Source of the DNA: Candidatus Omnitrophota bacterium
GTDB taxonomy: Bacteria; Omnitrophota; Omnitrophia; Omnitrophales; JACROU01
Direction of reading: 5' to 3'
Assembly (NCBI GenBank): GCA_016214265.1
Contig: JACROU010000024.1
Coordinates: 5,223-69,222 of the forward strand
DNA: 64,000 nucleotides
This document shows positions 1 through 28,900 of the stretch, one piece after another. The translations under genes were made by a program, and so were the position numbers. The notes below the pieces were generated by a model. It was not told the DNA's origin. It was given only the letters and a program-made list of their open reading frames with translations, and ran no database searches. Within the stretch, counting starts at the first letter, position 1. Every line of letters begins with the position of its first letter.

Positions 1-3000
1 TTGAACCGGATGTCCATCCACATAGTCGATCGTGCCATTGACTTGATCAATGACTCTGAGAAGCGACTGAACGATATTCGTTTTTCCGCTCGAATCCGTG
101 ACGGTGCTATATCCATATTCTGCGCCGGCAAGAGTGGTCAGTTGGGTGAGTTTTCCCGAGGCGTCATAAAATCGGACTACGTTTAAATCATTTGTGATTT
201 GAGTTTCATTTCCCGAATAGGCGTATTTGAATGTGCCCAGAAGATTTCCGGCGCGCGTCACGCTCGTCTGGATAAGACGGCCAAGTGCGTCATAACTCAT
301 ATCCATTTGCGTGAGCACACCATTTTCTGTGGATTCAATCTGAACCACCTTGTCATTTTGAACAATCGAGCGGCTCCCGCTTGCACTCGTAAATTCAGCA
401 AGATGCGCCACGGACACAGGATTGTTGTTGGCATCCAGCTCTTCGGCGATTCTATATTGGCGGCCATCGGTCATCGTGAGCCAAAACGGTTTATCCTGAC
501 TGACTTTGAGAAGAGTTCCATCGGCATACTTCACCTGCGTGAGAGCCTGATTCACGAAAGTAAGCTCTTTTACATCCGGCGTGATAATCAGAGCATCTTT
601 GAGATTGCCGTTGGCATCATGTGTGAAATTCTTGATGACGGTTCCATCCGGCTTTGTGATTTGGATGACTTGATCATTTGAAATGCCGAATACGGTTCCG
701 TCATGATCCACAAGTTCTTTTAACTTCCCGTCAGAACCATAAGTCCGCTTGAGGCCGTCACGGGACACGATGAGCCCTTGGAGGAATCCGAGAGGGTCGT
801 TGGCGAGTGCATATTGAGTTTCGTTTCCGCTTGCATCCAGCACACGATTGATCAGTCCAGACTCATCAAAGAAAAATTGGGTGCCGTCGCCCCGAGTCCA
901 CTTTTTGATTGTGTTGGAAGTTGTGTACTGAACTATTTGAGGAAGCGGGCTTGCGGGATCCAGCGTCACGCCTCCGCTGATTCGGGCTTCGTATCCATCC
1001 GGGGTTTGCGTGATTTGATAAAGGAAGTCCGTTCCCTGATACGCGATTTTTGAAAGCTTGCTTTGCGTGAAGAAAAATTCTGTGCCGTCTGATTTCCTAA
1101 AATCTTCAATTTCTCCTTGTGCATTTAAGGTGACCCGGTTGTCTCCCTCAAAAATATGCGTTCTCAATAAATTGCCGGAGACACCAAACGCATAGGTGTA
1201 ATAAACCACGCTTCCATTCGCGAGCACTTCGGCCTGGGCTCGTCCATCACTGTTATAGAAAATACGAGTTCCTTCAGGACGAAGTTCTTCGACAATTTTT
1301 CCTGCCTCAAGCCGGTACAAAACTTTACTTGCCGTTTCAATCCATCCGCCTTGAAGCACACCGCTTGCATCCAGGCTGGGATCAATCAAACCGGCCTCAG
1401 TCCCATTCAGATTAAACGTGATATTGGTCTTGCGCTCCGGCAGCGCCGGCTGAGCAAGGGCATTCAAGATCACGAGATAATAGGCCGCCACATGACCACC
1501 CCCGCTGGTCGGCACATCGACCTGAAGCAGATTGCCGCCGGAAGTCAGCGTGACGGATTTTGTCATGGGTGTCCCGTCACTGGTATAGGCGAGCGTATAA
1601 CTCGGATTATTCGTCAGTGTTGGGGAGTTGAAAACCACTTCCGGCAATTTCGTTTCGAGCATCACGTTGAAATCGAGTTTTGTTTCATTTCCTGCGGGAT
1701 CTTGTTCTGCAATCGAAAGTGTGTTCACACCTTCCGTCAGTGTCACACTTTTTGTCTTTTGCACTCCATCGACTGTGTAGACAAGCGAGTAATCCGGCTG
1801 ATTCACTGAGACAGCCGATGTCACCACCACCTGTGGGGCAATCGTATCGAGTGTCACATCGAAATTTAATTTCGTTTCGTTTCCTGCCGGATCTTGTTCT
1901 GTAATCTGGAGGGTGTTCAGTCCTTCGACTAATGTCACAGGTTTTGTTTTTTGAACACCATCAACGGTATAAGTCACAGTGTAGTCGGGTTTGTTGGTCA
2001 GCGAAGCCGAAGTCGCGGCGACAACCGGACCAACCGTATCCAGCGTCACGTCAAAATTAAGATTCGTTTGGTTTCCAACCAAATCTTGTTCGGCGATCTG
2101 GAGCGTGTTTAATCCCTCAACCAATGTCACGGGTTTTGTTTTTTGAACGCCATCGACGGTGTACGAAAGCGTGTAATCGGGTTTATTCACAAGATTCGTG
2201 GAAGTGACAGTGATAGCCGGAGCAACAGAATCCAGTGTTACATTAAAATTAAGTTTCGTTTGATTACCGGCAGCATCCTGCTCCGAAATCTGAAGCGTAT
2301 TCCCTCCTTCGGTAAGTGTCGCTGTTTGCGTTTTCTGTACACCATCCACGGTGTAGGAAAGTGTGTAGTCGGGTTTGTTAGTGAGTACGGCCGAAATCAC
2401 GGCGACAACCGGGGCAATCGTATCCAGCGTCACATCAAAACTGAGTTTCGTTTCGTTTCCAGCTAAATCTTGTTCGGCGATCTGAAGTGTGTTGAGCCCT
2501 TCAGTCAATGTCACAGGTTTTGTTTTTTGCACTCCATCGACGGTGTACGAAAGCGTGTAATCAGATTTATTGGTTAACGCGACTGAAGTCGCAGCAACTA
2601 CCGGGCCAATCGAGTCCAGCGTCACGTCAAAATTCAGATTGGTTTGATTAGCCGCTGCATCCTGTTCCGTAATTTGGAGGGTATTTACACCTTCGATCAG
2701 CGTCACGGGTTTTGTTTTCCGAACTCCGTCCACAGTGTAAGTCAGTGTGTAATCGAGTTTATTTGTCAACGCGACTGAAGTCGCTGCGACAACCGGAGCA
2801 ATTGAATCAAGTGTTACATCAAAATTTAAATTCGTTTGATTACCCGCCAAGTCCTGTTCGGTAATCTGAAGCGTGTTCAGTCCTTCGACCAATGTCATGG
2901 GCTGTGACTTCTGTACACCATCCACCGTGTAGGCAAGTGTGTAATCGGGTTTATTCACAAGATTCGTGGAAGTGACCGCAACAACTGGCGCAACCGAGTC

Positions 3001-5937
3001 CAGCGTCACATCAAAATTCAGATTGGTTTGATTACCAGCCGGATCCGACTCGGTAATCTGAAGCGTATTCCCTCCTTCGGTAAGTGTCGCTGTTTGCGTT
3101 TTCTGTACACCATCCACCGTGTAGAAAAGTGTGTAGTCGGGTTTGTTCGTGAGTACGGCCGAAGTCACGGCGACAACCGGGGCAATCGTATCCAGCGTCA
3201 CATCAAAACTGAGTTTCGTTTGGTTTCCAGCTAAGTCTTGTTCGGCAATCTGAAGTGTGTTCAGTCCTTCAGTCAATGTCACGGGTTTCGTCTTTTGAAT
3301 ACCATCCACGGTATAAATCAGTGTGTAATCAGGTTTGTTCACAAGACCCGCAGAGGTAACCGAGACAGCGGGAGCAATTGAATCAAGTGTTACATCGAAA
3401 CTTAAATTCGTTTGATTACCCGCCAAGTCCTGTTCGGTAATCTGAAGCGTGTTCAGTCCTTCGACCAATGTTATGGGCTGTGACTTCTGTACACCATCCA
3501 CGGTGTAGGAAAGTGTGTAGTCGGGTTTGTTCGTGAGTACGGCCGAAGTCACGGCGACAACCGGGGCAATCGTATCCAGCGTCACATCAAAACTGAGTTT
3601 CGTTTGGTTTCCAGCTAAGTCTTGTTCGGCGATCTGAAGCGCGTTCAGTCCTTCGACTAGCGTCACTGCTTTTGTTTTTTGAACGCCGTCCACAGTGTAA
3701 GTCAATGTGTAATCGAGTTTATTTGTCAAAGCGACTGAAGTCGCAGCAACTACCGGAGCAATTGAATCAAGTGTTACATCAAAATTTAAATTCGTTTGAT
3801 TACCCGCCAAATCCTGTTCGGTAATCTGCAATGTGTTCAATCCTTCAACGAGTGTAACGGGACGCGTTTTCTGTGCACCATCAACGGTGTACGTCAGTGT
3901 GTAATCAGATTTATTGGTTAACGCGACTGAAGTCGCTGCGACAACCGGGCCAATCGAGTCCAGCGTCACATTGAAATTCTGGTTCGTCACGTTACCCGCA
4001 GCGTCTTGTTCGGTGATGGTGAGCGTGTTCAGTCCTTCCACGAGTGTCGTTGTTTGCGTTTTCGCTACGCCATCGACAGTGTAGGTCAGCATATATTCAG
4101 GCTTGCTCGTCAATGCGCTTGAAGTCACCAGGATCAGCGGTGCGCTATCCCAATACACCACATCCTGAAACACCGAAATATTCCCCCACCGGTCGGCGAA
4201 TGATCGAAGAATCGGGTTCGCGCCTTCTTTCAACTGAATCTGCTCTGTGTACGCCTCACCGTCAATATCCAGAACAAGTTCATAATTCGACTGATTCACA
4301 AGGCCCTTCGACAAGCGCGTCACCACCGGTGCGGTTGTGTCTTGCTCCACAAGTCCGAACTTCACGTCCAGATTCGTGTTCGTCGAATACCACCACGGCG
4401 AGTTATTCCTCACATCGATCTCGAAAAAGCGGATGTTCTTAATATCCAGCGACCACGTGTAATCCGCCAAATCCAGCATGAAGAATTTCTCCTCATTCTG
4501 CGTGATCCCCTGAAGCGTGACCGATTTGCGCTGGCCGTACCAGTCGGTGATCACCAGTGACGCTTCTGTGACATTACCTTTTAGCGCAAGCCCCATCCGT
4601 GAATTCTTCGAAAAATCAAAGTTTTGATAGTTAGAGTTTTCAATTCTTGCCGCAAGCGGATTCGGCTGATAATAATAGTAATAGTTATTCCAGCCTCCCC
4701 ACCAATAATTGTTCCATCCCCAATAATTTTGCGACGATGATGACAACTGAAATTGCGTGTAATCCGGCGTTTGTGTGGAATTTACGTATGACCCGTAATT
4801 TGTCGTCACCCACGCGGGCTGGCCATTCGTGGTAAGCGGCATGAGGCCCGACAAGCCGAAACCGTTCTGGCCCTGAATCACATTCGGCTCATAACTTCTC
4901 ATGTACTGATTTTGAAAATAATTCTGATAATAATAATTGCCGTAATAATTTTGATAATACCCATACCCCCATGAATTCCAATATCCGGAATAATAGTTAT
5001 ACGGATAACCCCAATAGGCATATCCGCCGTGGCGCGGTGAGTAGGGATAATAACCGTTATAGGCGTTTGCCGGCGGCTGGGTACGCACAAACAAATATCC
5101 CTGCTGCTGGCCGTAGCCGTTGTAGGGATTGTAGTAGTTGTAAAAATTGTAAAAATTATTCTGATTCTGAAGCGCCGTCAGTTTTATCTGCCGAATTTGA
5201 TCCAGATCGAGATAACCCGAAAGATTCGTCAGATCAATATCATAAATCCGCTCTGAGCCGTATGAATTGGTCTGTAGCAGGTCCAAACTTACTTTGTTGC
5301 CAAACGCGTCTTCCATCTCAAAAAGAATTTTTTCCGAGTTACTGTCAATCGCGAACCGGAGATGATTCAATTTGGAAAAATCCGCCGACTCCACGAGCGA
5401 CGTCGATTCTTTATCGTAACTGAAAATAACGCCCGGCGCGGTGCCGGGATTTCTCAGGTCATAATCGACTTCAACACCTTCTCTGGAATTACTGACCATT
5501 GATGAGTGCAAACTTTTAATACTGGCCCCTGCTGGCAATCCGGTTAAATCATTTTGAGTGAGATTCCAGCTGGAGCTGACTGGCTGAGCCTGTGTCGCCG
5601 TATTCGCGGTAACGGGCTGAAGGGTTGAGCTCTGCGTCATAAAAGACGTGGTGCTCGACTGACTGGCGTTTTGCGTTAAAGTATTTTGATAAACCGAAGT
5701 ATTTTGAGTTTGAGGCTGACTGGAATTAGCTTGGACGACTGGCTGACTTGGCGTTTGTGTCTGCTGAGCCACTGGGGTGGCTTGCGCAAATGCACATTGC
5801 TGGGCAAGAAATGAGATTAGCGTGAACGCGGCGACTGCGCGGAATAAATCTTTTTTAAACTTTTTCGTTCCTCGTCTCTCACCTCCTGGGTAGGTGGACT
5901 TTGAGGTTCGATCAAATTTTTTTTTGCTTGAGAACAA
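1..5937 (-). CDS. Giant secreted/surface protein that is 5'-complete and 3'-truncated by the window edge (>1950 aa). It has a signal peptide, a Gln/Thr-rich linker, a Tyr/Asn/Gly/Trp-rich low-complexity region, at least 13 tandem 64-aa Ig-like repeats, and then YD/RHS-type repeats that run off the window.
   Basis: Hand translation of the minus strand in one frame (codon top coordinate = 0 mod 3) is stop-free at every stretch checked: 5937..5341, 4980..4921, 3660..3421 and 1440..1021. That frame gives ...TKKFKKDLFRAVAAFTLISFLAQQCAFA (signal peptide), then a Gln/Thr/Pro-rich linker, then WNSWGYGYYQNYYGNYYYQN, then repeats VTLDSIAPVVA..KPDYTL.YTVDGVQK...TL.EGLNTLQI.EQDLAGNQT, then YD-like ...YGSDGKLKELVDHDGTVFGISND.... 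The gene is absent from the ORF track because it has no stop codon inside the window. The start is ambiguous: in-frame TTG at 5937 (GGGGAG 7 nt upstream) or TTG at 5961. A strong AGGAGGTGA Shine-Dalgarno sits 10 nt before an in-frame ACG at 5868 that is followed by a canonical KKFKK-hydrophobic-AFA signal peptide. No in-frame ATG occurs until 5640. Confidence 0.72.
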   Translation of the reverse strand, partial: MFSSKKKFDRTSKSTYPGGERRGTKKFKKDLFRAVAAFTLISFLAQQCAFAQATPVAQQTQTPSQPVVQANSSQPQTQNTSVYQNTLTQNASQSSTTSFMTQSSTLQPVTANTATQAQPVSSSWNLTQNDLTGLPAGASIKSLHSSMVSNSREGVEVDYDLRNPGTAPGVIFSYDKESTSLVESADFSKLNHLRFAIDSNSEKILFEMEDAFGNKVSLDLLQTNSYGSERIYDIDLTNLSGYLDLDQIRQIKLTALQNQNNFYNFYNYYNPYNGYGQQQGYLFVRTQPPANAYNGYYPYSPRHGGYAYWGYPYNYYSGYWNSWGYGYYQNYYGNYYYQNYFQNQYMRSYEPNVIQGQNGFGLSGLMPLTTNGQPAWVTTNYGSYVNSTQTPDYTQFQLSSSSQNYWGWNNYWWGGWNNYYYYYQPNPLAARIENSNYQNFDFSKNSRMGLALKGNVTEASLVITDWYGQRKSVTLQGITQNEEKFFMLDLADYTWSLDIKNIRFFEIDVRNNSPWWYSTNTNLDVKFGLVEQDTTAPVVTRLSKGLVNQSNYELVLDIDGEAYTEQIQLKEGANPILRSFADRWGNISVFQDVVYWDSAPLILVTSSALTSKPEYMLTYTVDGVAKTQTTTLVEGLNTLTITEQDAAGNVTNQNFNVTLDSIGPVVAATSVALTNKSDYTLTYTVDGAQKTRPVTLVEGLNTLQITEQDLAGNQTNLNFDVTLDSIAPVVAATSVALTNKLDYTLTYTVDGVQKTKAVTLVEGLNALQIAEQDLAGNQTKLSFDVTLDTIAPVVAVTSAVLTNKPDYTLSYTVDGVQKSQPITLVEGLNTLQITEQDLAGNQTNLSFDVTLDSIAPAVSVTSAGLVNKPDYTLIYTVDGIQKTKPVTLTEGLNTLQIAEQDLAGNQTKLSFDVTLDTIAPVVAVTSAVLTNKPDYTLFYTVDGVQKTQTATLTEGGNTLQITESDPAGNQTNLNFDVTLDSVAPVVAVTSTNLVNKPDYTLAYTVDGVQKSQPMTLVEGLNTLQITEQDLAGNQTNLNFDVTLDSIAPVVAATSVALTNKLDYTLTYTVDGVRKTKPVTLIEGVNTLQITEQDAAANQTNLNFDVTLDSIGPVVAATSVALTNKSDYTLSYTVDGVQKTKPVTLTEGLNTLQIAEQDLAGNETKLSFDVTLDTIAPVVAVISAVLTNKPDYTLSYTVDGVQKTQTATLTEGGNTLQISEQDAAGNQTKLNFNVTLDSVAPAITVTSTNLVNKPDYTLSYTVDGVQKTKPVTLVEGLNTLQIAEQDLVGNQTNLNFDVTLDTVGPVVAATSASLTNKPDYTVTYTVDGVQKTKPVTLVEGLNTLQITEQDPAGNETKLNFDVTLDTIAPQVVVTSAVSVNQPDYSLVYTVDGVQKTKSVTLTEGVNTLSIAEQDPAGNETKLDFNVMLETKLPEVVFNSPTLTNNPSYTLAYTSDGTPMTKSVTLTSGGNLLQVDVPTSGGGHVAAYYLVILNALAQPALPERKTNITFNLNGTEAGLIDPSLDASGVLQGGWIETASKVLYRLEAGKIVEELRPEGTRIFYNSDGRAQAEVLANGSVVYYTYAFGVSGNLLRTHIFEGDNRVTLNAQGEIEDFRKSDGTEFFFTQSKLSKIAYQGTDFLYQITQTPDGYEARISGGVTLDPASPLPQIVQYTTSNTIKKWTRGDGTQFFFDESGLINRVLDASGNETQYALANDPLGFLQGLIVSRDGLKRTYGSDGKLKELVDHDGTVFGISNDQVIQITKPDGTVIKNFTHDANGNLKDALIITPDVKELTFVNQALTQVKYADGTLLKVSQDKPFWLTMTDGRQYRIAEELDANNNPVSVAHLAEFTSASGSRSIVQNDKVVQIESTENGVLTQMDMSYDALGRLIQTSVTRAGNLLGTFKYAYSGNETQITNDLNVVRFYDASGKLTQLTTLAGAEYGYSTVTDSSGKTNIVQSLLRVIDQVNGTIDYVDGHPVQ
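1600..4140 (-). repeat. Intragenic tandem array of about 13 copies of a 192-bp unit, each encoding a 64-aa Ig-like / 'VDTIAP'-type domain, inside gene A.
   Basis: The 8-mer tccagcgt recurs at 2423, 3191 and 3575, with spacings of 768 and 384 bp (4x192 and 2x192). Near-identical antisense ORFs at 2143..2466 and 3028..3234 in the track confirm the DNA-level repetition. The translated units are in-frame and begin with D-V-T-L-D-(S/T)-I-A-P-V-V. Confidence 0.85.
4650..5160 (-). other. Tyr/Asn/Gly/Trp-rich low-complexity segment of gene A (about 170 aa, aromatic-rich and prion-like).
   Basis: Minus-strand translation of 4980..4921 gives WNSWGYGYYQNYYGNYYYQN. The surrounding DNA is dominated by tat/tac/aat/aac/ggn/tgg codons (the plus strand shows ata/att/gta/cca runs). 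Confidence 0.7.
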
Positions 5938-6068
5938 TTCATTGCTCCCCGAATGCCCCAATCCTTTGGGTGACTAAGATCCATCTTCAGTTTTCTGTTT
6001 ATCCGTGTTTTTCCACTTGAAATTCCCAGGAATACAATTTCAAAGGAAGAATCAACATGTTGGTGCAA

Positions 6069-6175: not shown

Positions 6176-9100
6176 CTAAGCAGCGGTTTCAAGAATCCGG
6201 GTTTTCTGCCAGAGACGAATTTGTTCCTCAAGAATGGAAGGCAAAAGTTCGTAGGTAGAGCTGTTTATATCCATGTGGCGGAAAAGATAATTCCAGTCGC
6301 TCTTGTTACCAAAGGCATCGAAAACAGTTCTCAAAAGAGCCGACCGATAAGCTTCTTTCTTCAGCCCATTTTTTTGATGGACAACACGGAAAGCGCTCTC
6401 CGGCCAGCTTTCATTAAATTGATGATTGAGGAAAACAACCTGGTCCGGTCGTAATTCTGTCACATTTCCATCGGGAAACATTGCATCAACGATTCTCGTT
6501 TGAATTCGTGAAAGAAGAGCTTTTAGATCGAGCCGGGTTGTCCTTTCTAAATTACCCCACTTGACAAGATACACGTGCCTGTCTTTCAAAAGTGAGCCGA
6601 ATTCATCCTCCACTTTTCTAGCTATTTCCTCGTCTGGGACAAGAAAAATCACACCCTGTGTCCGGTAATCACTGCGAAAATCCCGTTGCTTATCCAACAG
6701 TTGCTCCAAAACATCTGCATCGAATTTCATAACAAGCGGCGTAAAACGAGGCGATTGAATCACTGAAGGTCCAAGGTTTCGCCTGTTCTCCCCAAGACTT
6801 TTTCCGGAAGATGCCGGTTCGGGGGCGGTAAAGACAATGCGGTATTCATATACGCCATATGGATTTTTATAATAATCCTTCGTGTAACGCAATTCGCCTA
6901 AAATTTTGTCGGAGTCAATTGGCGGTTCCCAAGCTCCACTATCTTCCCGCTTCTGTAAATAGAATGCCAATCCGCCGCCTCGATCTGATAACACCAACGG
7001 TTGTTCTATTGTGATAATGTCATGATTTTTACTTTTTGCTTCTAACGCAGTCTCCAACGCCCAAAGGATACGTATGAAAAAGGCATGAGAGGTGTCGGCG
7101 GGCGTAGAAAAATCAGGCACGCTTTTGTAAATTTCGGACAAACGTGTTTTTAAAATCTCATAATCCTGGAGAAATTCAGCCATTAATCTTCCCTTAAATT
7201 CTTTTTCTTCTCCCACAAGCATTCTGCCAGTCTGATGTTTTGCCAACTTTGGCCAAAGATCGTATAATTCAGTTGATTGTTGTTTTTTGACTAATTCTTG
7301 CTTCTCGATCACTGCTCGCTCCAATTGTAATGGGACAGCATTCATCTCTGTTTGTAAAACCCGCAACTCATTATCGGAAGGTTTTTGATAGTACGCGTGA
7401 CCGGGGAGCTTTTTGGCAATAAAATCCACATTCTTTGCTGTCCCGGAATCCAGATCAGAAATCCGGCTTGCCCTTTCCAGAAATTCAGTAACCGCTTTCG
7501 AAAAATCATTTCTCATTTTATCGGGTATTTTTGCGTCAGAAACGATACCGAGCATAATTTTACTGGCATCCTTGAGCCAAACTTTCTGCCTTTCAACATA
7601 TTCTTGCGGCGTGTCATGAAATTTTCCATGTCTGAGGTGAAACAATTCTGCTTGTATCTTGAGAAACTGGATAAGCAGAGAATCATTGGATGTGTAACAA
7701 GTTAGGGTTTGCATAGCTCCGGTCTCATCCGTAAACATAATAAATTCCGGCTTAAAATTGGCGAACCCTCCCCCATGAATAAGTACGATAAGCCGCCTAT
7801 AGGTGTCAAAATGAGGCGAGATGCTGGGATTGGGGTTAGATGGATCAAATGGTTTTGGTGGCATCGGTGGAGCTGGAAGAGAATAATATTGAGGGTGATC
7901 CTCCACGTACTGCAACGATTTACGGGCTCCGTCAAAATCTCTGGCCCAAATTTGATCAAGAATTTCTCTTTGTGTTTGTCGAATGAAACTCATTCGATCT
8001 TCAACCCTTTTCTTTGAAAGATATGTAGGGATGTTGCTGATAGCTCCAGTAACAAGACAACCAGCGCTAATCAGCGCAAAAAGAAGACAGCCTTTTGAAA
8101 AACGTCTGGAGGGCTTTTTGTCGGTGTCAAGGAGCGCAACAACGGCCTGCGCTTTTTCTGATGACGCTGTTTTTCTGACTTTCTGAGCTGGTGATGGTGA
8201 TTTCGGCTTTCCGGTAACAGCCGCCGCAGTCGTGGCGCTGGCAGTTTTGGCTACAGCGTTTCGTTCCGACGGCTTGTTCAGCTGAAAAAGCACCGTCAAT
8301 TTGAAACGCTGCCCGACCTGGGGGGCAAAAGCACCGTTCACATCCACTTGTTCCGGCAACTTGATCGATTTAAGTCCGTTTTTATCAGCGGGAATTGGCG
8401 GCTGAAATTCCCGGGTCGCTGGATTCTCGCGCTGGACGAAAACAGTCAGCTTTCCCTCCTTTGTGTCAAATTCCAAGTTGTTGAGCTGAATCGGCTCGTT
8501 CTTCCTGCGGCGACTCGAAATTTCAGCAAGAATGCGCTTGAGAATTCTCAGATTATTTGGAACTTTGGGATCTGACGCTGAAAGCTCGAGCTCCCTTTGA
8601 TACGCGAGAATGACCTGCTCATAAATGTTGTCAGGTGTCGGCGGCAAAGTGCCTGATGCGATACCCAAACTTTTTCCGGAAGAAGCCGATTCCAGAGCGG
8701 TAAAAACAATTCGGTATTCATATTCACCCATGGGGCAACATATCCGTCTGACGCGAAATTCATCAAGGATAGATTGGTTGCCAATAGTCGGACACCACGG
8801 CTCATTCCCTTTCCGTTTTTGTAAATAAAAAGCTAACCCACCTCCTGGAGCAGGCAAAAATAGCGGTTGTTCGATACGAATAATTTCACCTCGAGATTTT
8901 TTTTCTTCCAAGATTTGCTGCAAAGTCTCTTTAACTATTGTCATAAAAGCCTTAGGGTGCCCGTTCGCTTGGTTATCTCGTGGCATCCCGTATAAATACT
9001 TCTCCACAATTTCACGTCCGCGAACAAGTTCATTGACAGGTCTGTCGTAATCACGAATCTGATGAGCTAGTACCGCTAACCATAACTCGAACAATCTATC

Positions 9101-16900: not shown

Positions 16901-19900
16901 AAACATCCGGTTTGTCTGGGCTTCAAGCGCGGCTTTGTCTTTGGAAAGTTCTTTGTGACGCTCGCTGAGCATGGCGCGAATCGAATCTTTTTGTTTTTCC
17001 TTTAGCTGTTCCTCGAGCCGGTTCATGCCTTCCCGGTTAATGTTCCAGGTTTCAAAAACGGCTTTGTCGCGTTTTGCGAATACGTCAACGTTTGCAAACA
17101 GCTCTTGGGCGATAGTTTGAATTTCACTCTCATTAATGACACCACGGTCAACAAGCTCTCGCAGATAAACTGAAAGCGCTTCCCGAGGATTAGCGAGGAA
17201 GGCGTTAATGTCATCAAGATTGTTGAGTCCTTTGACATAGTCAATTGCCAGTTGAGCGACGCGGTCTCCTTTTCGCGCGTCTTCTTCCAACGTATGGGCC
17301 CGATTGAAAAGTCGTAAGTCATGTTTCGGAATACTGTGGCCACGAATTTCTTCCTCAAGGTCATTATCGATTAACTGCCAGAAAAGCCGATCGTGCACTT
17401 TCCGCAGCTCTCCGGTTCGTTTCAGGAAATGGCCGTGCACATCCACGTAGAAGATGGTTTTGCCCTGAGCATTTTTCTCGTTGCTTGTTTGCACTGCCAG
17501 AGATTCACGAGAACTCATGGATTTTGTATCCGGATTAAAACGGACAACAAAAACACGGTCGTCCACTTTCGATTCACGCATCATCGCTCCGGCTTTTTGC
17601 TGCGCCTTTTTCTCGATTTCAGCGTAAATTTTCCCGAGCTCTGTGGTGGCCTTGAAATCCGCATATTCTTTTTCGAGCTGCTCGAGTTTTGCTTGTGCTT
17701 CTTCCTTCGTCATTCCCGCGGGCAATTCTTTCCTTCCCTCCGCGTAGGAGCGCATCGCCTCGATTCCCGTCTTTTCATCATGGAAGCGGGCGAGCTCTTT
17801 GTATTCCGCTTCATTCACAGGGGCGTTATTTTCCCGGTCAGCCTGAATGGTCTTTGAAATTAACGGAGCGATAAATGCGCCTAGCTGCGGCAGTTCTTTT
17901 AGCAAATCATCCCATGTTTTTCGCTCGGCTGTAACCGCTGTGGTAATTTTTTTGGCCAGCTTGTCTATTTCCGTTGTAACTTTTGGCTCCGCTCGATTGA
18001 CAATAGCCTCTGCTTTATCGCGTAATGCTTGCGCTTTTTCAGGCTGTTTTTCCTGAATGGCGTCGGCTTGGCGCAGTAAATCAACGGCCTTTTGCAAGTT
18101 AGCCAGTTTTCCTCGTTTGATTTTTAATTGCTCCAAAGCGGATTTTAAGTTTCCTTCAATTTCATTAAGAGAAGTCTGGTGATCACTCGCTCCTTTACCC
18201 CCCTTAGCTTCTTTAAGATAAGTCCGTATTTTTTCGATGCCATTGTCTTTAAGTTGATCGTAAGCGCTCTGAGTTTCATTATCCTTATCCGCTTTCTTTA
18301 TTTTGTTGATGGTTTTAATGATTTTCGCTAGCTGCGAAACCATCTTCTTGGCGTCGATGGTTTTATCCTCTGGATGATTCAGGCTGTAAACCAGCATCTG
18401 AACCCCGTTGATTAACAATTCCTTTTCTTCATCGGATACGGGAACCTTCTCAGCAATCAGGGCACGGGCAATGTCGCGTATCACAGATTGAGCACGCATA
18501 TTCGATGAGAATGGTGAAGCGAGAGCATATCCGATTTTGGCCAGCGCGTTTCTCACCGCGCCCCGTTGCTCATGAAGAGTGAGGGCCAGTGCCGTTTGTC
18601 CAATTTCAGCTGGACCGGGAATATCTTTGTAAGCGCCGGGATTTTGTTTGGTCTTGAAATCCCGGGCAGCAATCGAAGCATCCACATTCGCGGCGAAGCG
18701 GCGAATTTCATCCTGACGCATTTTCGCGATGCTTCCCCCATTCTTTGACGCGGCGACCGCCATCAAAGCTGCCTGGGCATCCAAACTAATAGGAGAGGTT
18801 TGAAGCAGCAAGGCCAGCTGGGCCATGATTTTTACGGGATCTTCTTTAGAGACTGAAGCCAAACTTTGTGCGGCACCCTGAAGTTTTCCGACAGAGTTAT
18901 TCCTGAAATAATTCGCGAATCCGATTTCCAGGGAATTCCACGTTTGTGCGACGCGGGTTCTAACACTGGGCCACAACAGGTCACGCGGCGATGCCAACGT
19001 CACCATGGCATTTCGTACCCAACTCTTTAATCCCTTTAACGGTCCCTTGATTTCTCCAAGCGTTTCATCAAGCCGGGCACGAGCGACCGCTTTTTTCTCC
19101 ATCGTTTTATCCATTTTGTCTTTCAAATCCTGGCCGTGGTAGAAGCGCTTCTCCTGCTCCTTCTCAAAATTGATAATGGGCTTGACCGCGTTCTGCAATT
19201 GTCTCGCGACATTTTTATCCGCGATATTTGCTGCAAGCTTATCGACGAGTTCTGCCATCGCGAGGCCACGGTTTCGATTGCTTAGCGCAGAAGTAATCTC
19301 CGCCTTAATCTCGTGCGTGCTCAAATCAACGCCGGATTTGCTCAAGAGATCAAGAAAATTCGTCATGGGAAGTACGGTTTTGAGTAGATCCGAATTGATC
19401 ATCCAGACCGGAATCGTTCTATCCTTCATCAGCGCGGCCAATGCGGCAATCAACGCTTTCTCGTCCTCATCTTTCGGAGGCGGAATACCCAACACTTTAA
19501 GCAGAGGTTTAAGTTTCTGCACAGCTCCGCCAACCCCTTCTTTCGATGTTTTCATCGCGGCGAACGCCTTCACCAAATCTTCACCGGTCGCTGTCAATTT
19601 GCCGCGTCCGTCCACATATCCCTGCTCGCGGGCCGTTTTGACTAATTGCTGGAATTCCGCGTCCGTAACAGATCCTTTTTCGATAATATTTTCTTTCTCA
19701 AGTTCTTTGACGTTATCGGAGGCGGAAATAGCACGGGTGGTAACGAAATGCTGAGCCGAGGGCTGCGGAGCCACTCTGGGGATATCGGTTTCGCGAATTT
19801 TCTGATTGATGAGACGTGCGACTTCGGCGGGACTTCTGGCTTCGGCAATGCCATGTTCTTTCAAGCGTTGGCCGTTTAAGTTTAATTCTTTCGTTTGATC

Positions 19901-22900
19901 AAACGCTTCACGTGTCGGCGCCCGCGCCAGATCCGGAACGACCATCCCCACTTTAACGCCTTCCACCTGTGACTCAATCACTTTACCGGTGGCATCGACC
20001 ACGATATATTTTGAACCATCTGCCTCCAGATACAGCGTTTTCGACGTATCGTTTAGCGTCAGCTCGCCCATCTGATTCATGGCTTTGATTTGTGCCTCGA
20101 TCTGATTCCGAATCGCTTCAGGCAATGCACTGGCTCTCGATGCGGTTTTTAAAATGGCCTCGAGGAATGATTTGTTTTTCTTTAAATTATTGCGCAGGCC
20201 GTCAATTCCTTTCTGAGCGCCGCCTAAATTCGTGTCGGTGTTCTTTCCTTTCTGCTCCTGAAATTTAGCACGCTCTTTTGAGAGCACTTGGATGATAGCG
20301 TCCTTCTCGCTTGCCGATAGTTTTGTATTCGCTAAAACATTGGCTTTCATATCTTCCAGGAATGTCACCAGCGCGGCATCCTGCGAATCGGTGAGGGCCC
20401 GATACATATTTTTTTGCACCGAATAGGTTTCGTTGTCCTGAAATGTGTTCCGGAGGGCAACGACGGCCAATGGGACGCGGCGGGTTTTGCCCGGAATTTC
20501 ATTTTCAACAATTTGCCAGTTTTCATCAACGATCACTTCTCTTGAATTTCGAATATCGTCCGTGGTTTTAAACTCTTCGATTACTTTACCTTCACGGTCT
20601 CTGGCCGCAAATCCGCCAATGAAACTCACATCCACTGAATGATATAAAGCCATGTTGTTGACGCCGGCATCACTAGGGCTTGTCGTAAAGAGTCCATCCG
20701 GTCGATTGACTTCTGCGGCAAGTTGTTCGGCTGTGATTTTCCCTTCCCGGAACATCTGGGCAGCACCCGCCGTGCGGGCGTAAACGAATTGATCGGAAAC
20801 TTTTCCGTTTTTGTCCGTCACGCGAATGCGGACACCTCGATCGCGTTTGACCAGCTGTTCAAAGTCATACATATTGGTCTCGGAATTGGCAAAAGCGTGA
20901 AAAGCCACATCCGGTCCCGTGGAAACGTCGACACCGCGTGTCGCGCCCAGGTTAAAAAATACGCCTACCCGTTCTCCACGTGCCTTGGCGTCCATCAAAT
21001 AAGATTTCAAGCCTTCCGACAGCGATTCCGTCGACCTTACTACTTTCCCATCCTTCATCGTGAGCTTAATCCACTTGGTTCCCTGATCTTTGATGAATAC
21101 CGTTTGAAACTGACCGCTTGCCAATAATTTTTCCTGTAACGGATTGATCATCTCCGCGGTTTCATCGATGTCTGATTGCCCATCTAGAAACACGTGATGA
21201 AAACTTGACGAGTCTTTATCCACGTTAATATTATCAAGTGCGGTGCGAATATCTCTTGATTGCGAAATATTGTCTTTGGTGAACCACCCCTGATCAAAGG
21301 CATTGGCGTACACATATTTGGCAACGTCCACATTATAAATTTTCTCTAAAATATTTTTCATGTGCATCAGTGTGCCTGAAAACCCGCTGAAATCGGATCC
21401 ACCTTTCCGGAACGCCATAATCGTTTCAAGCCGTGAGGAACGAATAGACTCGGCCGACTTTTTAATCTTTGAGAGAAAATCTTTGCGCGCTTCCGCCTTC
21501 TTAATGTCTTTTCCCAGGAATCTTAAGAAAATCAGCTGAGTGAACGCCTGCAGGTAGGCGTCGGATTGCTGCAATTGCGGAGCAACCGCATTACCCGCCA
21601 TCACTTTGATCGTGTCTCGAAGCTCAAAATATTGCGTGAATGAAATCAGATTTTCTTTGGCAGCGCGTTTGAATGTTTCCTTCGCCCGAAGCGCCACAAT
21701 TTTGGTGTCCGTGGTCGGTGTCCCTTCAATCAGAATTTTTATTTGCGCCGGTGTGAGCCCCATATCCCGGATATCGACCATGAGCGGCTGAAGCAGATTG
21801 GTCTCGCTTTGCGTGAGCTGACGCGGCGCTTTGACGCCCTCTTTCTCGAACATTTCAGCGTAATAAGCGATTTGACGACCTTCATATTGTTTGAGCGAAT
21901 TAGACAGGCCAACGAGTGAAGCGCGGAATTCTTTGACGATTTCGCGGCGATCTTCGACAAGCGAGTCTAATTCGGAATCTTTCATCTGAATCATTTTCGC
22001 CGCTTCAGCAGCCGTAACGCCCGGCATTTTCTTCGCTAGGGCTTCTGACAAAACATCCAGCAGTTCTTTATTGTTCAAATCAAACTTCACATCGTGAATC
22101 ACCGCGGCTTTTCCCTGGGCTTTTTGCTCTAAATATTGTGTCCACGACATCGGGCCGATGATTCTGTCTGATTTGTGGTCATACAACCTGACGTAAGTCA
22201 GACTTCTTAACGCGTCCAGATAATCTTTTCCTTTAAGCTCGCCGATTTTGCCTTTCCCCTTAATCTCGAAACCGAGAAGGATGTCATCAATCTCTGAAAT
22301 GTTATTTTGCGCGCTTTCGGCAATTATATCTTCCGAATCCTTGCCTTGTTTTTGTACGCCATTGGCATCGGCGTTGGTATCGGCTTCATCGTAAATCGTG
22401 CGGTTATTGGAGACCATCAGTTTGTGAAACTCGATTAAATTCTTCTGCGCTTGCAAATCGCGGACGTTTAACTGTTTCTCACCCTTGGTGTCCTTAAGCT
22501 CGTTATTGAGAAAATCAATGGTGGTGGCCTCCACGATGATAATGCCGCCTTCTGCTTTCATCTTTCTTAACTTTTCAAGCTTTTCGGTATCGCCTTGCGC
22601 AATGGCCTGCAAGTCCTCTTGCTTGATCACCATGCGATTCATCTTCTTTCTCTCTATCATTTTATTTAAATCTTTATCCTCCACCGTTTCCGTAAACAGC
22701 ACTTCATTCGGTAGAGCAAATATCGTGATATCCCCGTTCACCCGGCCGATGGAGTCCAGATGCTTTTGGAGCGCAGAATTTTTATTTTTTTCTTTATCGT
22801 TTTTGAAGGCTTGATTCAAATGCGCGGCAGCAGCAAAAATAACCGCTGTTTTTCCGGTACCGGCAGGAATTAAGTGGAAGGTGTTGCCATTGATGGCGAG

Positions 22901-25900
22901 ATTCACGACGGCCAGAAATACTTCCACATCATTTCGAATTCCCAGCTGAGAAAAACCATCCATCGTTTTGACGTAATCATCGACAGCTTCGTTAATGAAT
23001 ACGGCGAGAGCGCGCTGTTCTTTCGTTCCCACGTTTTCATCCGCGCGCATAATCACTTCTGTTACACCATTCTGGGAAGTGATGACTTCCTTATAGATAA
23101 CACCGCCTAGCGCTTTCCCCTTGCCGATGAGCGTTTTTTCAATAATTTCCCTGTGCGAACCCACTGCGCTTTTTCTCGCTTCTCTTGATTTGCCGCTATC
23201 CGATAGCGCCTGCCGTTTGGTGTCTCGCTCCGAAACCACCTTTCCGCGTTCTGCTTCAAGCGATGCAGTTACTCGCGCCGGCGGACCACGAGGTGCTTCG
23301 CGTTCGAGAAGGGCGATTTGTTGTCTGATCGTGGTCTCTTTCGCCAAAACTGATTTGAGATCCGACTGAGCCTTGGCGAGTTCTGCTTCCAGTGCCGCCT
23401 CTTGTTCCGGCCCGGCTCGTGTCGGCATGGATTTTTTGAGAGCATCGAGACGTTTCATATCGGCTAAACGGGTAGATTCCAAAACTTTCAGTTCATGGCG
23501 CAATTGAAGCAGTTGTTCGCTTGCTACCCGTGCTGCAGCCTTTTCGGTAGCCTTCGTCGCCTGTGGCACAGCACTTGGAGACAAAACATTTTTAAGTCCC
23601 ATCGTCTGAATAATCGAGGTCGCAAATGAACGCAGACCGATAATGTCTAGCCGCGCTAGTTCTAATGCTTTGGCCTTGGCATCAATTTCATTCGGATCCG
23701 CTTTCTCAGATTTCCTGAGCGCTTCAAGTGCGCTCCGTTGGGCCTCATACCGGCTTTCTTGTTGTGAAATAACCTTGGCCATGATTTCGAGCCACGCTTC
23801 CGCCTGCTTTGCATTGGATCTCAATGATGCATCGGTGAGCAGCTGGCTGATCTCAAAGGCCGTCAGATTTTCGTTGTTGCTAAGTTTTTGCTGAATGGCT
23901 GTTAAAAGCGCTGTTCCTGCAAGTGCAAAAGCTTGAGTCGGCCCTTGAATTTGAGCCGTTTTCAGAACTGCGATTTGCTGATCCGTTTCTCTGACTTGGG
24001 CCTCAAGTGTTTGCGCTTGGGCTTGCACTTCAGCTATCCGGGAATCCATCGCGGCTTTCATTGCGTCTGTTAAAACGTAATCGGGTGAGGCCTTGAGCGT
24101 TTCCAGCTCTTTGGCAAGCTGATCATTTTGAGTCTCGAGCTGGGCGATTCTTCTTTCGTAAGCTGCGCGCGCCGCGGAATCCGTTTCGACTTGAGCCAAT
24201 TTTGAAAGCGATTTTATCCGCATCTGATTAACACCCAATTGGCCTTCCAGGAAACTGGACCTGGTAACATAAGCTGGATTAACGCCACGCCGTAGAGCTT
24301 CTGCCTGAGTGCGTTTTAAATTTGTGAGATTTTCAGTTGCACGGCTAGCCTCCTGACGGGATTGATTGGCTTGGGTGACTAGCTGTCCGATTTTGTCGGC
24401 TCGGGATGACTCTTCGGAAGTCAATTTCTGCTTGGCCGTGACAAGGTATGAATCTGTTTTCACAACCTCTCCGGCCGCGTCGAGGTAATTGATTGAGACT
24501 CGTCCAGCGCTATCAGCCGTTATTTCGGACCGTGCGAGCGATTGAGAGGCATCGGCCTCAATATTCATCACCAGTTTCAGGTTGGTATCATAAACAGCCA
24601 TCTGCTTGTCATTCAGCACGGAAAGTCTTGAAACCAAATTGCCCGTTGCGTTTTGAATAATTATTTCCGATTGATTTTTTCTGGCGGAATCGTTGGTTGA
24701 AATTCTGGTGGTGGTTGAACCATCTGCTGATGCAACAGAGCTGATTTTAAGTCCGTTATGCCCTGCAATCGTCATCAGCACGTTTCCATTAGCATCCTGA
24801 GCCACAAATCCTACGTCGTTTCGCGCCAAACTCATAATCGGCATTGGACGACCCTCGGCATCTTTGACAAGTCCGGTCTGCCCCCCCTGTTTGAATACAT
24901 CCACTCGCAAAATATTTCCTTGCTGATCCATGGTGATGGAATATTCCCCACCTTCGGAGGTAATCACTTTTGCGACAAGATTTCCATTTATGTCTCGCGA
25001 GGTATCCAGTCCGATGATATCGCCTTTCAGCTCAAGCTGGGGAGTCTCTCTGTCACCAAAAGTAGTTCGATTATCTCCACGGTTGATATTGAGCGCTGTG
25101 CCTTCCAGGACAATAGAATGATCTGTCACGATGAGACTGTCTGTTTTATCTACACTCGAACTGAATATAATTGCCGCCGTGCCTTCCATCACTGCGACGG
25201 CAACTTTTCCGCCCTCACGAACTTCTCCTCCCAATTGAGCCATGACGACTTGACCGCGCGCAAGGGCATTCACCAGCAAACGAGGTGAACCCTGATAATT
25301 TTCGAGAATCGAAATCAGAAGCACCTTGTCGATCTTGTTGATATTTTCAGCAAAAAGCCGGAGTGTTTCGGCATCGATTTCGGAGAGATCTCGATTCATA
25401 AATAGACGAGCGACGAGACTCGCGGCATCCGTTGATTCGGAGGCAACTGAGTCCATCAAATTCTCCACGGCTCGTTCATACGCTTCCCTGGCAGTAACCG
25501 CCGCTGGCGCTTCCTTGACAAGGCCTTGCTGTCTTTCAATCATCTGAGAGATTTTAATGGCCAGTGCTTTCGGATCCTTCAAATCCGCTTCGCTGATGTA
25601 GAGAATTTCCTTACTGTTCGAATCAATGCTGTAAGTTCCGGCTCCGATAAATACAGCAACTTCGTTGAGAAGCCCAATTCCGCCAGTCATTTCGAGGGCC
25701 AATTTTATTCCCCGGTCCAACGAATTTTTTACCTGCCCCGCGTCTCCCCGAGTCATCTGCACTTCCGCCCCTTCATTAGTAAGGCTTGCGGTACCGAAGA
25801 GTTCAATCTCAAGCTCGCTTAAAGCGATCAACTCAACGTTTCCGTTCACCAAAGCATCTTCCAGGATGGCCGCTGCAAGCTCCATTTGTCCCTGAAGGAC

Positions 25901-28900
25901 AAGTTCGTCAATAAGCGTGAATACACCGCTCTGGATTTTTAACCCCTCAACAGATCGGGTTGCATCAACACCTTTTGTAATTTTGATGAAGAGATCTTTT
26001 AGGGAGGCGCTGTCTCTGCCCTGCTGATAATTTTGAACTGCCAATTGCGCAAGAACTCGAAGACTTTCAAGATAAGAAGAATTTAGCAAGTTCTGGGCGG
26101 TATCAAATTCAGCGCCGCTGGTGACTTCACGCGACGCCAAATCTGCGTTTAAAGCTTCTGCAGAATTTAAGACATTATCAATCAGTAGCTGAAGCACTGC
26201 ACTGGTATCAAGGTGTGATTTTTCTACTGCCAGTTGAGTCAGCAGTAATCGACTCTCAACCAGAAGTTGTGTATTCACTGCAAGCTCAAGTTGTACGCCG
26301 GTGAGACCGGTACCAGCGGCTTGTGCACGTTCAAAGGATGCAAAAACCTGAGCCGAGGTGACGGTACTTGAAGGAGTTGACACAGCGACAACAGGGACTG
26401 GTACATTATTGTTTTGTGCCCGGAATGTGGCCAAAACAACTTGCTGTGATTCATTGACTAGTCTGAGTAATTGAACAAGGGCCAGGATGTTTTCTTCGGA
26501 CGCTGATTTTTCAAGATTAAGCAGTTTGAGTAAATCATCCAGGCTCAATTTGGTTACAATCACGTTGCCGGCCGCATCCAGACTGATCATTCTTCCCCCG
26601 TCGGGCGTAACGATCAACTCATAAGCTTTCTTGCTATCCAAAAAGCCTTGAATATCGGTGCTGGACGGTTCTCCTGACTCCGGATGATTGTGCGTCAGAA
26701 GTTTTACCTGATCCGAATTTAAAAATGCGGTTAACGCATCAGTGGTTCGAACCTCTTCCGTAGTTCCCGTGGAATAGACGACAAATTTGCCACCCACAAC
26801 AACAATCAGAACCTCGTACCCAAGTTTTTGAATTCTCTCGAGCATCGAGAGAGTGAATGCATTTTCTTCCATCACAAAAGCAACTGGCTTTTGCTGTCCG
26901 GGTTGCGCGTTAAAGTCGAGAGCATCCATGATGGGGCCGAATGCCTTCGTTTGTATGGCTAGATTGAATGTGGAAGTCGTTATTTGTTTAATCTTTGCCT
27001 GCTGCACCGCCGGCATTTGATCGGCTAGCGCCACCATCTGCGCGAAAATCCCCATTTTTTCCAGAATGTTCACCCGGGAATCTTGTAACTTGCTATTTAA
27101 AGCATCGTACTGGGCTAACAAATTCATCATGGTTTCAGCCGTCTTCAGAGATTCTCCCGTCATCGCACTGAGTGCTCTCATATTATCCATGGGCAGAGCG
27201 GCCTGAGAAACTTGAGCGATAATCTCGGGTGTAGCGTCTGTTCGCTGTGCGACTGCTTGCGTCAACGCATCGATACTTGCCATGGCGGATTTCACCTGAA
27301 TTTCGATAGCGGCCAGCGCATCACGCGCAGCTTTCATGACTGTCGGATCCGTGGTCTCGGCGATAATTTTCTGAAGCGCGCCGGCAGCTTCCATTTGAGA
27401 TTGAATTTGCGCGATCAAGGTCTGAATTTGGGTTGATATCGCCACGGCATCAATCGGGTTTGCGGTGTTTTGAACACTGGCGGTAGTGTCCGTCACGGGC
27501 TGCTGGGCATCAGTAATTGCCTGCGTTGTTTGCGGAGCCGCTTGCCTGTCACTCACAATTGTTTCCATCGCCAAAACACGGCTGGTCATTTCCGTGTTTG
27601 TTTGATTGATGTTGGCCGCGGCCGCAACTGAAAGATTTTGCGCAAGAGCGGTGGCAATTTGATTCAATTCTGTGAGTGATTCACGTGCTGCCTGAACTCC
27701 CTTTTGTGCGAGCGCCGGATCGTTCGTTGCTGCGGCGGCATCAAGAAGCATTTGGATTTCCATTTGCAAATCCGCCATGCGCTGAAATTGATTTGCGATT
27801 TGTGTGATAGCGGCCAAATTGGATTCTAGCTGAGAAACTTGTTTTTGAACTTCCTGAACAACCTGTTCGCTGACCACTCCTTTGGCCTGCAATTCCTGAA
27901 GAATGGCGAGCGTCATTTGAGCTGATGCCACAGCATCGCGGGCTGTGGTTTCAAGCGTGCGAGCGCTTTCGAGTTCCGTCGCGTTCTGCGTTCTGGCGGT
28001 TGCCTGGGAGATGGCTCCCGTAGCATCACTCAAACTGCTGACTGCTTGAGATGCCCTCGTTACATTTGCTGCCTGCTCGGCCAGACGTGTTACCACATTT
28101 TGTGCGGCTTCAACCGCTGATTGGGGAACAAATCCTTCCCGGGCCAGCTGTTGAATAGTCGCAAGATTCGCTTCAGCAGATGCGAGGCTTGCTTGGATAT
28201 CGCTAATGATTTGCCCCGCCGCTTGCACGTCAAGATTACTTTGCGCGGTTTGCGCACTTTGTTGTGTCGCGACTGCATTCGCGTCAATTTTTGCAGCAGA
28301 CACGGCGGCTTTCTGGGCTCCAGCGAGTTCTGTTTGTGCCTGTACGGCCGCTTTCGATGTTTGATCGATTTCGGCTTGGGATGCTCCAGCAGCTTTCTGC
28401 ACATCCATCTGCTGAAGCAAATTATTAAGCCCCTGGGTTTTCATCATGACGACGTCCGCAAACGCCTGCGCAGCATCCATACGCTCTTGGTCACCCGACT
28501 CTTGAGCCTCTTGCAGTTGTTTTATCGCGTCATCAATGCTCGCGATCTGAGCATCAATCGCGGCATTACGTGCCGCGGCATCTTTTTGCGCCTGAGTCCT
28601 CATATCTTGTGTCGCTGTGGTGACTGTGCCGTCGGACTGTTGAGTGGCCGTGACTTGCTGACTGTCTGTGGTAGTTACGGTAACCACCTCGTTACCTGAA
28701 CTATTCGTCGCGACTTCAATATTGGCAGCCGTGCCTGCCTGAGTCATAACCACATTACCGTTTGAATCCAACAATTTGATTTGCGACTCTTGCCCAAACT
28801 GATTTTGAGACTCAATCACCGTGTTTCCACCGTCGGTTTGTGTGACCGTGAATTGAGCGCCCGTGGTCAATGTGTACGTGGTTTGCGTTCCTCCATCCAC

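Follow-up and report, generated by a model that had tools for sequence, protein, structure and literature searches.

The subject of this analysis is gene A, a very large minus-strand gene at the edge of a 64,000-nucleotide (nt) window from a Candidatus Omnitrophota bacterium (assembly GCA_016214265.1, contig JACROU010000024.1, positions 5,223 to 69,222 of the forward strand; "the window" is this whole stretch), and in particular an aromatic segment near the N-terminus of its product. Gene A encodes a surface protein with a predicted Sec export signal, an N-terminal lectin-like module, immunoglobulin (Ig)-like repeats and RHS repeats. Comparison with its relatives gives good support to the conclusion that the lectin-like module carries about 100 lineage-specific, near-uncharged Tyr/Asn/Gly/Trp residues at three sites. 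The sites of this aromatic excess are equally well supported: a loop in the first copy of a jelly-roll domain resembling carbohydrate-binding modules (CBMs), the linker between this copy and a second one, and a site inside the divergent second copy. We tentatively read the three blocks as aromatic 'sticker' loops that would add glycan adhesion or self-association to the module, an interpretation based on analogy to which we give somewhat less than an even chance. Residue numbers of gene A count from a TTG codon at 5937.

The segment at 5160..4650 (minus strand) encodes 171 amino acids (aa), of which 39 are Tyr (22.8%), 25 Asn (14.6%), 20 Gly (11.7%), 16 Gln (9.4%) and 9 Trp (5.3%). Together these five residues make up 63.7%, compared with 20.6% of the other 20,647 aa of the window (binomial P 5e-34); Tyr is enriched 8.0-fold over the same background (binomial P 6e-24), Trp 8.3-fold and Asn 2.7-fold. 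Only five of the 171 residues are Asp, Glu, Lys or Arg. Counted over 174 aa, the segment has one Asp, one Glu, no Lys, four Arg and 14 Ile, Leu, Val or Met residues, the latter mostly outside the blocks, so that charged and aliphatic residues are both depleted. The peak aromatic fraction in 40 aa is 0.525 in the segment and 0.375 in 146,000 aa of comparison sequence. No other protein of the window equals the segment's aromatic content in any 40-aa window, and genes B, C and E reach at least 25% Tyr/Trp/Phe per 40 aa only in short stretches of ordinary composition. The first-pass annotation had described about 170 aa composed almost entirely of Tyr, Asn, Gly, Trp and Gln, a composition said to be unusual for bacteria. 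The peptides it quoted and the bias itself are borne out. The words "almost entirely" overstate the case: the segment consists of three aromatic blocks (aa 259-278, 293-347 and 402-424; combined about 83% Tyr/Asn/Gly/Trp/Gln and 34% Tyr), between which lie 'QGYLFVR..PPANA' and an island of 54 aa (aa 348-401) with an ordinary composition.

The blocks lie in and between two related domains (BLASTP E 4e-6 between copy 1 and copy 2) that have a CBM-type β-sandwich fold. A family profile of 152 positions, derived from 87 copies, covers copy 1 from end to end with E 1e-33, and copy 2 only over positions 66-139. Block 1 is surplus with respect to six homologous modules, and its loop is modelled with a predicted local distance difference test score (pLDDT) of 50-69 between confident strands. 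The peptide QGYLFVR that follows it aligns with 'GKE.GDFTVFAK' of the relatives; since it forms the final strand of copy 1, the loop of block 1 lies within the domain. Block 2 has a pLDDT of 23-33 and no secondary structure in the model. The island that follows probably comprises, at moderate confidence, the remaining linker and the first strands of variant copy 2, and block 3 appears, from the alignment and the model, to lie inside this divergent copy. Block 3 is a 20-aa excess over all six homologous modules, has a pLDDT below 50, and holds six Trp and seven Tyr in 23 residues, with Gly turns. All three blocks score below 50 in the model of the whole module and are probably unstructured. Two other assignments were rejected. 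Block 3 (…YWWGGWNNYYYYY…) was considered as a diverged form of the family core 'GWAGGGFSYD'; the sub-profile scores -0.5 bits, 515 of 1000 composition-preserving shuffles score as high or higher, and hmmalign leaves the block unaligned. The bicupin matches returned by Foldseek for the whole-module model (TM score 0.12) were discarded as artefacts, this two-domain model being of low confidence.

Searched exhaustively with phmmer, 1.84 billion representative sequences yielded 64 relatives (P0001-P0064). Their alignments are confined to aa ~115-258 and ~433-562 and leave aa 281-430 uncovered; the composition correction of HMMER may mask similarity that is compositional only. The first-pass annotation had held that its functional suggestion would fail if homologues lacked the region and the region did not self-associate. 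The first half of this pair is what we find: all 64 detectable homologues are without the Tyr/Asn/Trp-rich region, and none reaches 30% aromatic residues in any 40-aa window. The domain copies of the relatives (240, in 62 proteins) abut one another, with model-adjusted gaps of about 5 aa; calculated in this way, gene A has about 101 residues in excess. Six modules of P0034, P0002 and P0010 have the same order, namely a full copy, a half-matching variant copy and an Ig repeat. Their module length is 344-359 aa, compared with 446 aa in gene A, and the excess sits in the aromatic blocks. Proteins with the N-terminal architecture of gene A belong to one Candidatus Omnitrophota metagenome-assembled genome (MAG), where they are entered as 'hypothetical protein, partial'. 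No orthologue of gene A was found by exact look-ups (gene B, P0038) or in a metagenome scan for six peptide patterns, of which three had been taken from the aromatic blocks or from their borders. Word-index protein searches with the N-terminal 566 aa, the low-complexity region alone and the family profile were also empty; these negatives carry little weight because the collection holds relatives that they missed and that exhaustive phmmer finds.

The domain that surrounds the blocks is, judging from its sequence, an undescribed family of about 150 aa found in Omnitrophota-type hypothetical proteins. Its 240 copies occur in back-to-back tandem arrays, some of the proteins being 5000-7000 aa long, and the consensus reads …GWAGGGFSYDDF…DLS…FGLKG…VKLE..D..G.K…DLT.VR.IYFIVEG.NQTGTLE…. 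No Pfam family was found in gene A aa 1-566 (scanned at E<=10), nor in nine relatives, and the best match of the flanking domain to a PDB profile is CBM32 with E 0.061, so that it belongs to no described CBM family. The flanking domains are similar to the β-jelly-roll modules CBM11 (1v0a), the mannanase CBM 1wky, CBM30, CBM29, CBM15, CBM8 and CIA30; unlike these described CBMs, they have no sequence-family membership. Whatever the blocks do, the family merits definition.

In the sticker interpretation, Tyr and Trp would serve as stickers and Asn, Gly and Gln as spacers, displayed beside two jelly-rolls of carbohydrate-binding type. The stickers could then add low-specificity, multivalent contacts, by CH-π stacking and hydrogen bonding, to a polysaccharide of the cell's own envelope, of prey or of a partner cell; alternatively, the contact could be π-π self-association between adjacent molecules. 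Either would raise the avidity of the module at one end of the Ig stalk, with the RHS part presented at the other end. Several points weigh against this interpretation. Only one sequence carries the blocks, and no orthologue of it was found, which precludes an estimate of conservation. Only the fold suggests that the flanking domain binds carbohydrate; it has no match among Pfam or CAZy-type families, and copy 1 of gene A lacks the Trp of the family's GWAGGG motif. The low pLDDT of the blocks may stem from missing homologues and not from disorder, and the placement of block 3 and the island depends on a seven-sequence alignment and on a model with a pLDDT of ~50-60. Finally, the C-terminus of gene A lies beyond the window, and either end of the protein could be the cell-proximal one.

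Giant proteins with CBM-like repeats are a described feature of the Omnitrophota and have been proposed to act in prey adhesion (10.1101/2023.11.21.568195). In a bolder version of the sticker interpretation, which we consider unlikely, the blocks would be a bacterial convergence with animal aromatic-sticker adhesives such as galectin-3 tails and mussel foot proteins, condensing or gluing the tips or bases of giant Ig/RHS filaments onto the glycans of prey or of the cell's own envelope, and thereby contributing to the machinery with which ultra-small predatory or epibiotic Omnitrophota attach.

The DNA of the segment bears on how the blocks arose. Codons for Tyr, Asn and Gln are mixed, in ratios typical of the locus (TAT encodes 67% of the Tyr residues of the segment and 64% of those of the giant gene), and no exact internal repeat exceeds 12 nt. 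Tandem arrays are limited to 12-nt and 9-nt micro-arrays; Tandem Repeats Finder reports a degenerate (YYxN)x4 array at 4909-4959 in block 2, with 69% matches, and an (NFY)x2 remnant in block 1. Judging from these remnants, the blocks probably began as micro-duplications. Recent replication slippage is ruled out by the mixed codons, the shortness of the repeats and the weakness of the arrays, and the compositional bias is maintained at the amino-acid level. Selection is favoured over fresh slippage because of the mixed codons, the 12-nt maximum repeat and the occurrence at three sites of the same unusual and metabolically costly composition. The same data have to be set against a neutral low-complexity expansion, in which tolerant loops and the linker acquired small tandem duplications that then lengthened and diverged, leaving blocks that have no specific function and a composition that reflects mutational history. 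We regard this as doubtful, though it is the strongest of the alternatives. It would account for the absence of the blocks from all 64 relatives and all 240 domain copies, for the micro-repeat remnants, for the restriction of the blocks to a loop, a linker and an insertion site that are predicted to be unstructured, and for the N-terminal half of copy 2 being already degenerate. However, the codon and repeat data indicate that such an expansion is of some age and has been retained, one Tyr/Trp-rich composition recurs at three separate sites, and the ordinary linker of gene A and its relatives is rich in Ser, Thr, Gln and Pro instead.

The first-pass annotation had likened the segment to eukaryotic prion-like or FG/YG low-complexity domains. 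The likeness holds for overall composition: among the references tested, the N domain of Sup35 (Sup35-N) gives the highest composition cosine, 0.79-0.84, and charged and aliphatic residues are few. It does not extend to the features that define these classes. The peak density of Gln plus Asn in the segment is 21 per 80 aa, under the Michelitsch-Weissman value of 30 per 80, and the peak of gene A as a whole (24 per 80 aa) lies in the Ser/Thr/Gln/Pro-rich linker. The single FG dipeptide in 174 aa sets the segment apart from FG-nucleoporins, and two [G/S]Y[G/S] triplets, with 6% Ser, set it apart from FUS-type domains. A functional amyloid, in which Tyr/Asn/Gln cross-β steric zippers would polymerize the protein on the cell surface, is quite improbable. 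The near absence of charge, the scarcity of Pro in blocks 1 and 3, and runs such as NFYNFYNYYN and YYYYY would suit it, as does the cosine with Sup35-N (0.84). Against this, the density of Gln plus Asn is low, Pro and Gly occur throughout block 2, none of the blocks is long (20-55 aa), two being anchored within or beside folded domains, and no similarity to curli, Fap or other amyloid families was found in Pfam.

Very improbable, too, is that Trp/Tyr/Gly-rich loops such as WGWNNYWWGGWNNYYYYY enter the interface of a target membrane, in the manner of viral fusion loops or Trp-rich peptides, and so dock an RHS toxin carrier. The Trp and Tyr content of block 3, the presence in the host protein of RHS repeats typical of toxin-delivery proteins and the proposed predatory or parasitic habit of Omnitrophota are in line with such a role, which is proposed from resemblance. 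The blocks have neither an amphipathic nor a hydrophobic pattern and are rich in Asn and Gln, and the flanking fold is of the glycan-binding and not the membrane-binding type. Least probable of all is oxidative Tyr cross-linking (dityrosine or 3,4-dihydroxyphenylalanine, DOPA) into a matrix that is covalently hardened or acts as a glue, as known from mussel foot protein 3 (Mfp-3) and Tyr-rich eggshell or spore-coat proteins: the blocks are 34% Tyr and have the Tyr/Gly/Asn/Trp palette and a 'GWNN' motif in common with Mfp-3 (Q9GUX8), but they are almost free of the Lys and Arg that make up 26% of that peptide, the five large genes of the window include no visible tyrosinase, laccase or peroxidase, and the groundwater and sediment habitats suggested by the names of matching Omnitrophota MAGs would often be anoxic.

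Low-complexity regions that are aromatic and uncharged have been studied in depth in eukaryotic condensates, prions and animal glues; few have been reported from secreted proteins of bacteria. Should the blocks prove to mediate adhesion or self-association, gene A would be a compact, testable example of a surface lectin module gaining avidity through loop expansion, and a starting point for experiments on the attachment of uncultured Omnitrophota to other cells by their giant surface proteins. Should the blocks instead prove neutral, they would show the extent of compositional drift that loops of a CBM-like domain tolerate.

The layout of gene A and of the neighbouring genes is given in Table 1. 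The frame of gene A is open from 5973 down to base 1 (1991 codons in the open-frame list), and the TTG at 5937, with GGGGAG 7 nt upstream, is its likely start. The only close relative of gene A is P0038, a 139-aa fragment from run SRR3990167 that is 78% identical to the N-terminus of gene A, including residues upstream of the signal peptide, and that stops before the aromatic region. Since this similarity reaches upstream of the proposed start (window 5863..5973, minus strand), the start codon is uncertain. P0038 also bears a 35-aa insertion with 'WIPAFAGMTK', resembling a translated repeat element. A lipoprotein anchor was considered and rejected, as 'LAQQC' does not, by eye, fit a lipobox. 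The Big_13 array has a strict 64-aa period, and its repeats have a mean pairwise identity of 62% and a maximum of 90%, which suggests recent expansion or homogenization of the repeats. The RHS_repeat match above the Pfam threshold makes gene A a candidate RHS/YD-repeat carrier of a polymorphic toxin, comparable to Bacillus subtilis WapA.

Table 1. Features of gene A and its neighbours in the window (all on the minus strand; residues are those of gene A)
Feature	Position	Residues	Remarks
Gene A, visible part	1..5937		1979 codons from TTG 5937; 3' end runs past the window edge
Signal-peptide-like N-terminus KFKKDLFRAVAAFTLISFLAQQCAFAQA	5779..5862	26-53	Read by eye; P0034, P0009 and P0051 align
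S/T/Q/P-rich linker	5578..5778	54-120	Relatives carry the linker too
CBM-like jelly-roll domain, copy 1	5083..5577	121-285	Takes in the block 1 loop and the last strand
Aromatic block 1 QNNFYNFYNYYNPYNGYGQQ	5104..5163	259-278	Loop expansion ahead of the last strand of copy 1
QGYLFVR, last β-strand of copy 1	5083..5103	279-285	AlphaFold strand E165-171, pLDDT 80-91
Aromatic block 2, expanded inter-domain linker	4897..5061	293-347	45% Tyr/Trp/Phe; no homologue aligns
Island of ordinary composition	4735..4896	348-401	Aligns with 'SSYGRLLSSDYESFEMEF' of P0034; weak strands, pLDDT ~50-60
Aromatic block 3 SQNYWGWNNYWWGGWNNYYYYYQ	4666..4734	402-424	52% Tyr/Trp; apparent insertion in the N-terminal half of variant copy 2
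Variant copy 2, recognizable C-terminal half	4405..4629	437-511	Hidden Markov model positions 66-139, E 1.9e-14; pLDDT 60-78
Ig-like (Big_13) array, ~15-16 repeats	1411..4344	~532-1509	Pfam Big_13 E 9e-46
YD/RHS-repeat region	1..1410		Cut by the window edge; Pfam RHS_repeat PF05593, 40.8 bits (cutoff 22)
Gene B	6176..12034		1952 aa; no Pfam family
AAA_14/DUF4143 ATPase	12216..13658		480 aa
14,531-aa open reading frame	13970..57565		First 5000 aa with RHS repeats (55.6 bits)

On the plus strand, an open reading frame at 4971..5423, of 150 aa and rich in Arg, Asn and Ser, overlaps the low-complexity region. It was rejected as a gene: the minus frame is continuous, with homologous domains in frame on both sides, and the antisense frame is probably a by-product of the sequence bias of the coding strand.

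The window is made up of very large minus-strand genes, those besides gene A encoding 1952, 480, 14,531 and 1879 aa. The first and last 5000 aa of the 14,531-aa frame were scanned against Pfam, and the last 5000 aa gave no match at E<=1e-5. Gene B contains a 300-nt direct repeat (8268-8567 and 10137-10436, 97% identity, spacing 1869 nt) and a second repeat pair of 102 nt with 79% identity, from which it appears to be built of two homologous halves. Genes with 90-95% identity to that of the 480-aa ATPase occur in other Omnitrophota MAGs and in MAGs that carry the label 'Planctomycetia'. Eight genome loci reached through this gene (L001-L008, 50-95% identity) contain neither gene A nor gene B nor the giant genes; because the neighbours at the matching loci are unrelated to those of the window, the ATPase is either mobile or unusually conserved, and as an AAA_14/DUF4143 protein it was discarded as an uninformative anchor for synteny.

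We found no described case of an aromatic, uncharged low-complexity region inserted into the loops of a domain of glycan-binding type. The first-pass annotation had also pointed to S-layer and spore-coat proteins whose Tyr-rich regions cross-link or bind carbohydrate. The likeness to S-layer and spore-coat proteins found no support, there being no Pfam matches and essentially no Lys, Cys or Asp; the position of the blocks within two jelly-roll domains of CBM type lends the idea of carbohydrate binding indirect support. Sup35-N shares with the segment the dominance of Tyr, Asn, Gln and Gly and the near absence of charged and aliphatic residues; in contrast to Sup35-N, the segment has more Tyr (22-34%) than Gln plus Asn, contains 5% Trp, is extracellular and embedded in folded domains, and lacks oligopeptide repeats of the PQGGYQQYN type. 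The composition cosines are lower for Mfp-3 (0.75-0.77), curli of the CsgA type (0.56-0.71) and the galectin tail (0.51-0.64), and the curlin repeat profile gave no Pfam match in aa 1-566. Mfp-3 (PMC9287526), with 22% Tyr and 7% Trp, resembles the segment in its residue palette, its GWNN motif and its extracellular adhesive context. It is, however, a free 46-aa peptide that is strongly cationic and depends on the conversion of Tyr to DOPA, whereas the blocks contain no Lys and about 2% Arg (four Arg in the 174 aa of the segment), with no modifying enzyme in view.

Choline-binding 'YG' repeats (PF01473, PF19127), which bind cell-wall polymers or glucans, are likewise extracellular and rich in aromatic residues, Gly and Asn; they form a regular solenoid of ~20-aa units, a periodicity that the segment lacks, and neither family was matched in aa 1-566 at E<=10. 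The 'FxxN' motifs of chlamydial Pmp proteins, brought to mind by the (YYxN)x4 array, were rejected, there being no GGA[ILV] motifs and no Pfam match. At the level of the whole protein, gene A resembles WapA-like RHS toxin carriers, which have wall-binding modules at the N-terminus, and the stalk-plus-lectin 'Periscope' adhesins (PMC9999234), in combining a Sec signal and a binding module at the N-terminus with a long stalk of repeats and RHS repeats. The binding module of gene A belongs to a different, undescribed family, and its C-terminal toxin or anchor region would lie beyond the window.

The best mechanistic analogue of the blocks is the galectin-3 type. Here a disordered region with aromatic motifs is joined to a β-sandwich glycan-binding domain, its self-association drives agglutination, as experiments have shown, and it has expanded independently across lineages (PMC12979664). 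By analogy, self-association of the blocks would convert monovalent binding into avidity or agglutination. Galectins have no sequence or fold-family relationship to the module of gene A, and the galectin tail is a single contiguous N-terminal region rich in Pro, Gly and Ala, whereas the segment is dominated by Tyr and Asn and is split over a loop, a linker and an insertion. In both, Tyr or Trp is combined with Gly and polar spacers beside a β-sandwich domain of glycan-binding type, and in both the aromatic region has expanded in a lineage-specific manner by the repetition of motifs.

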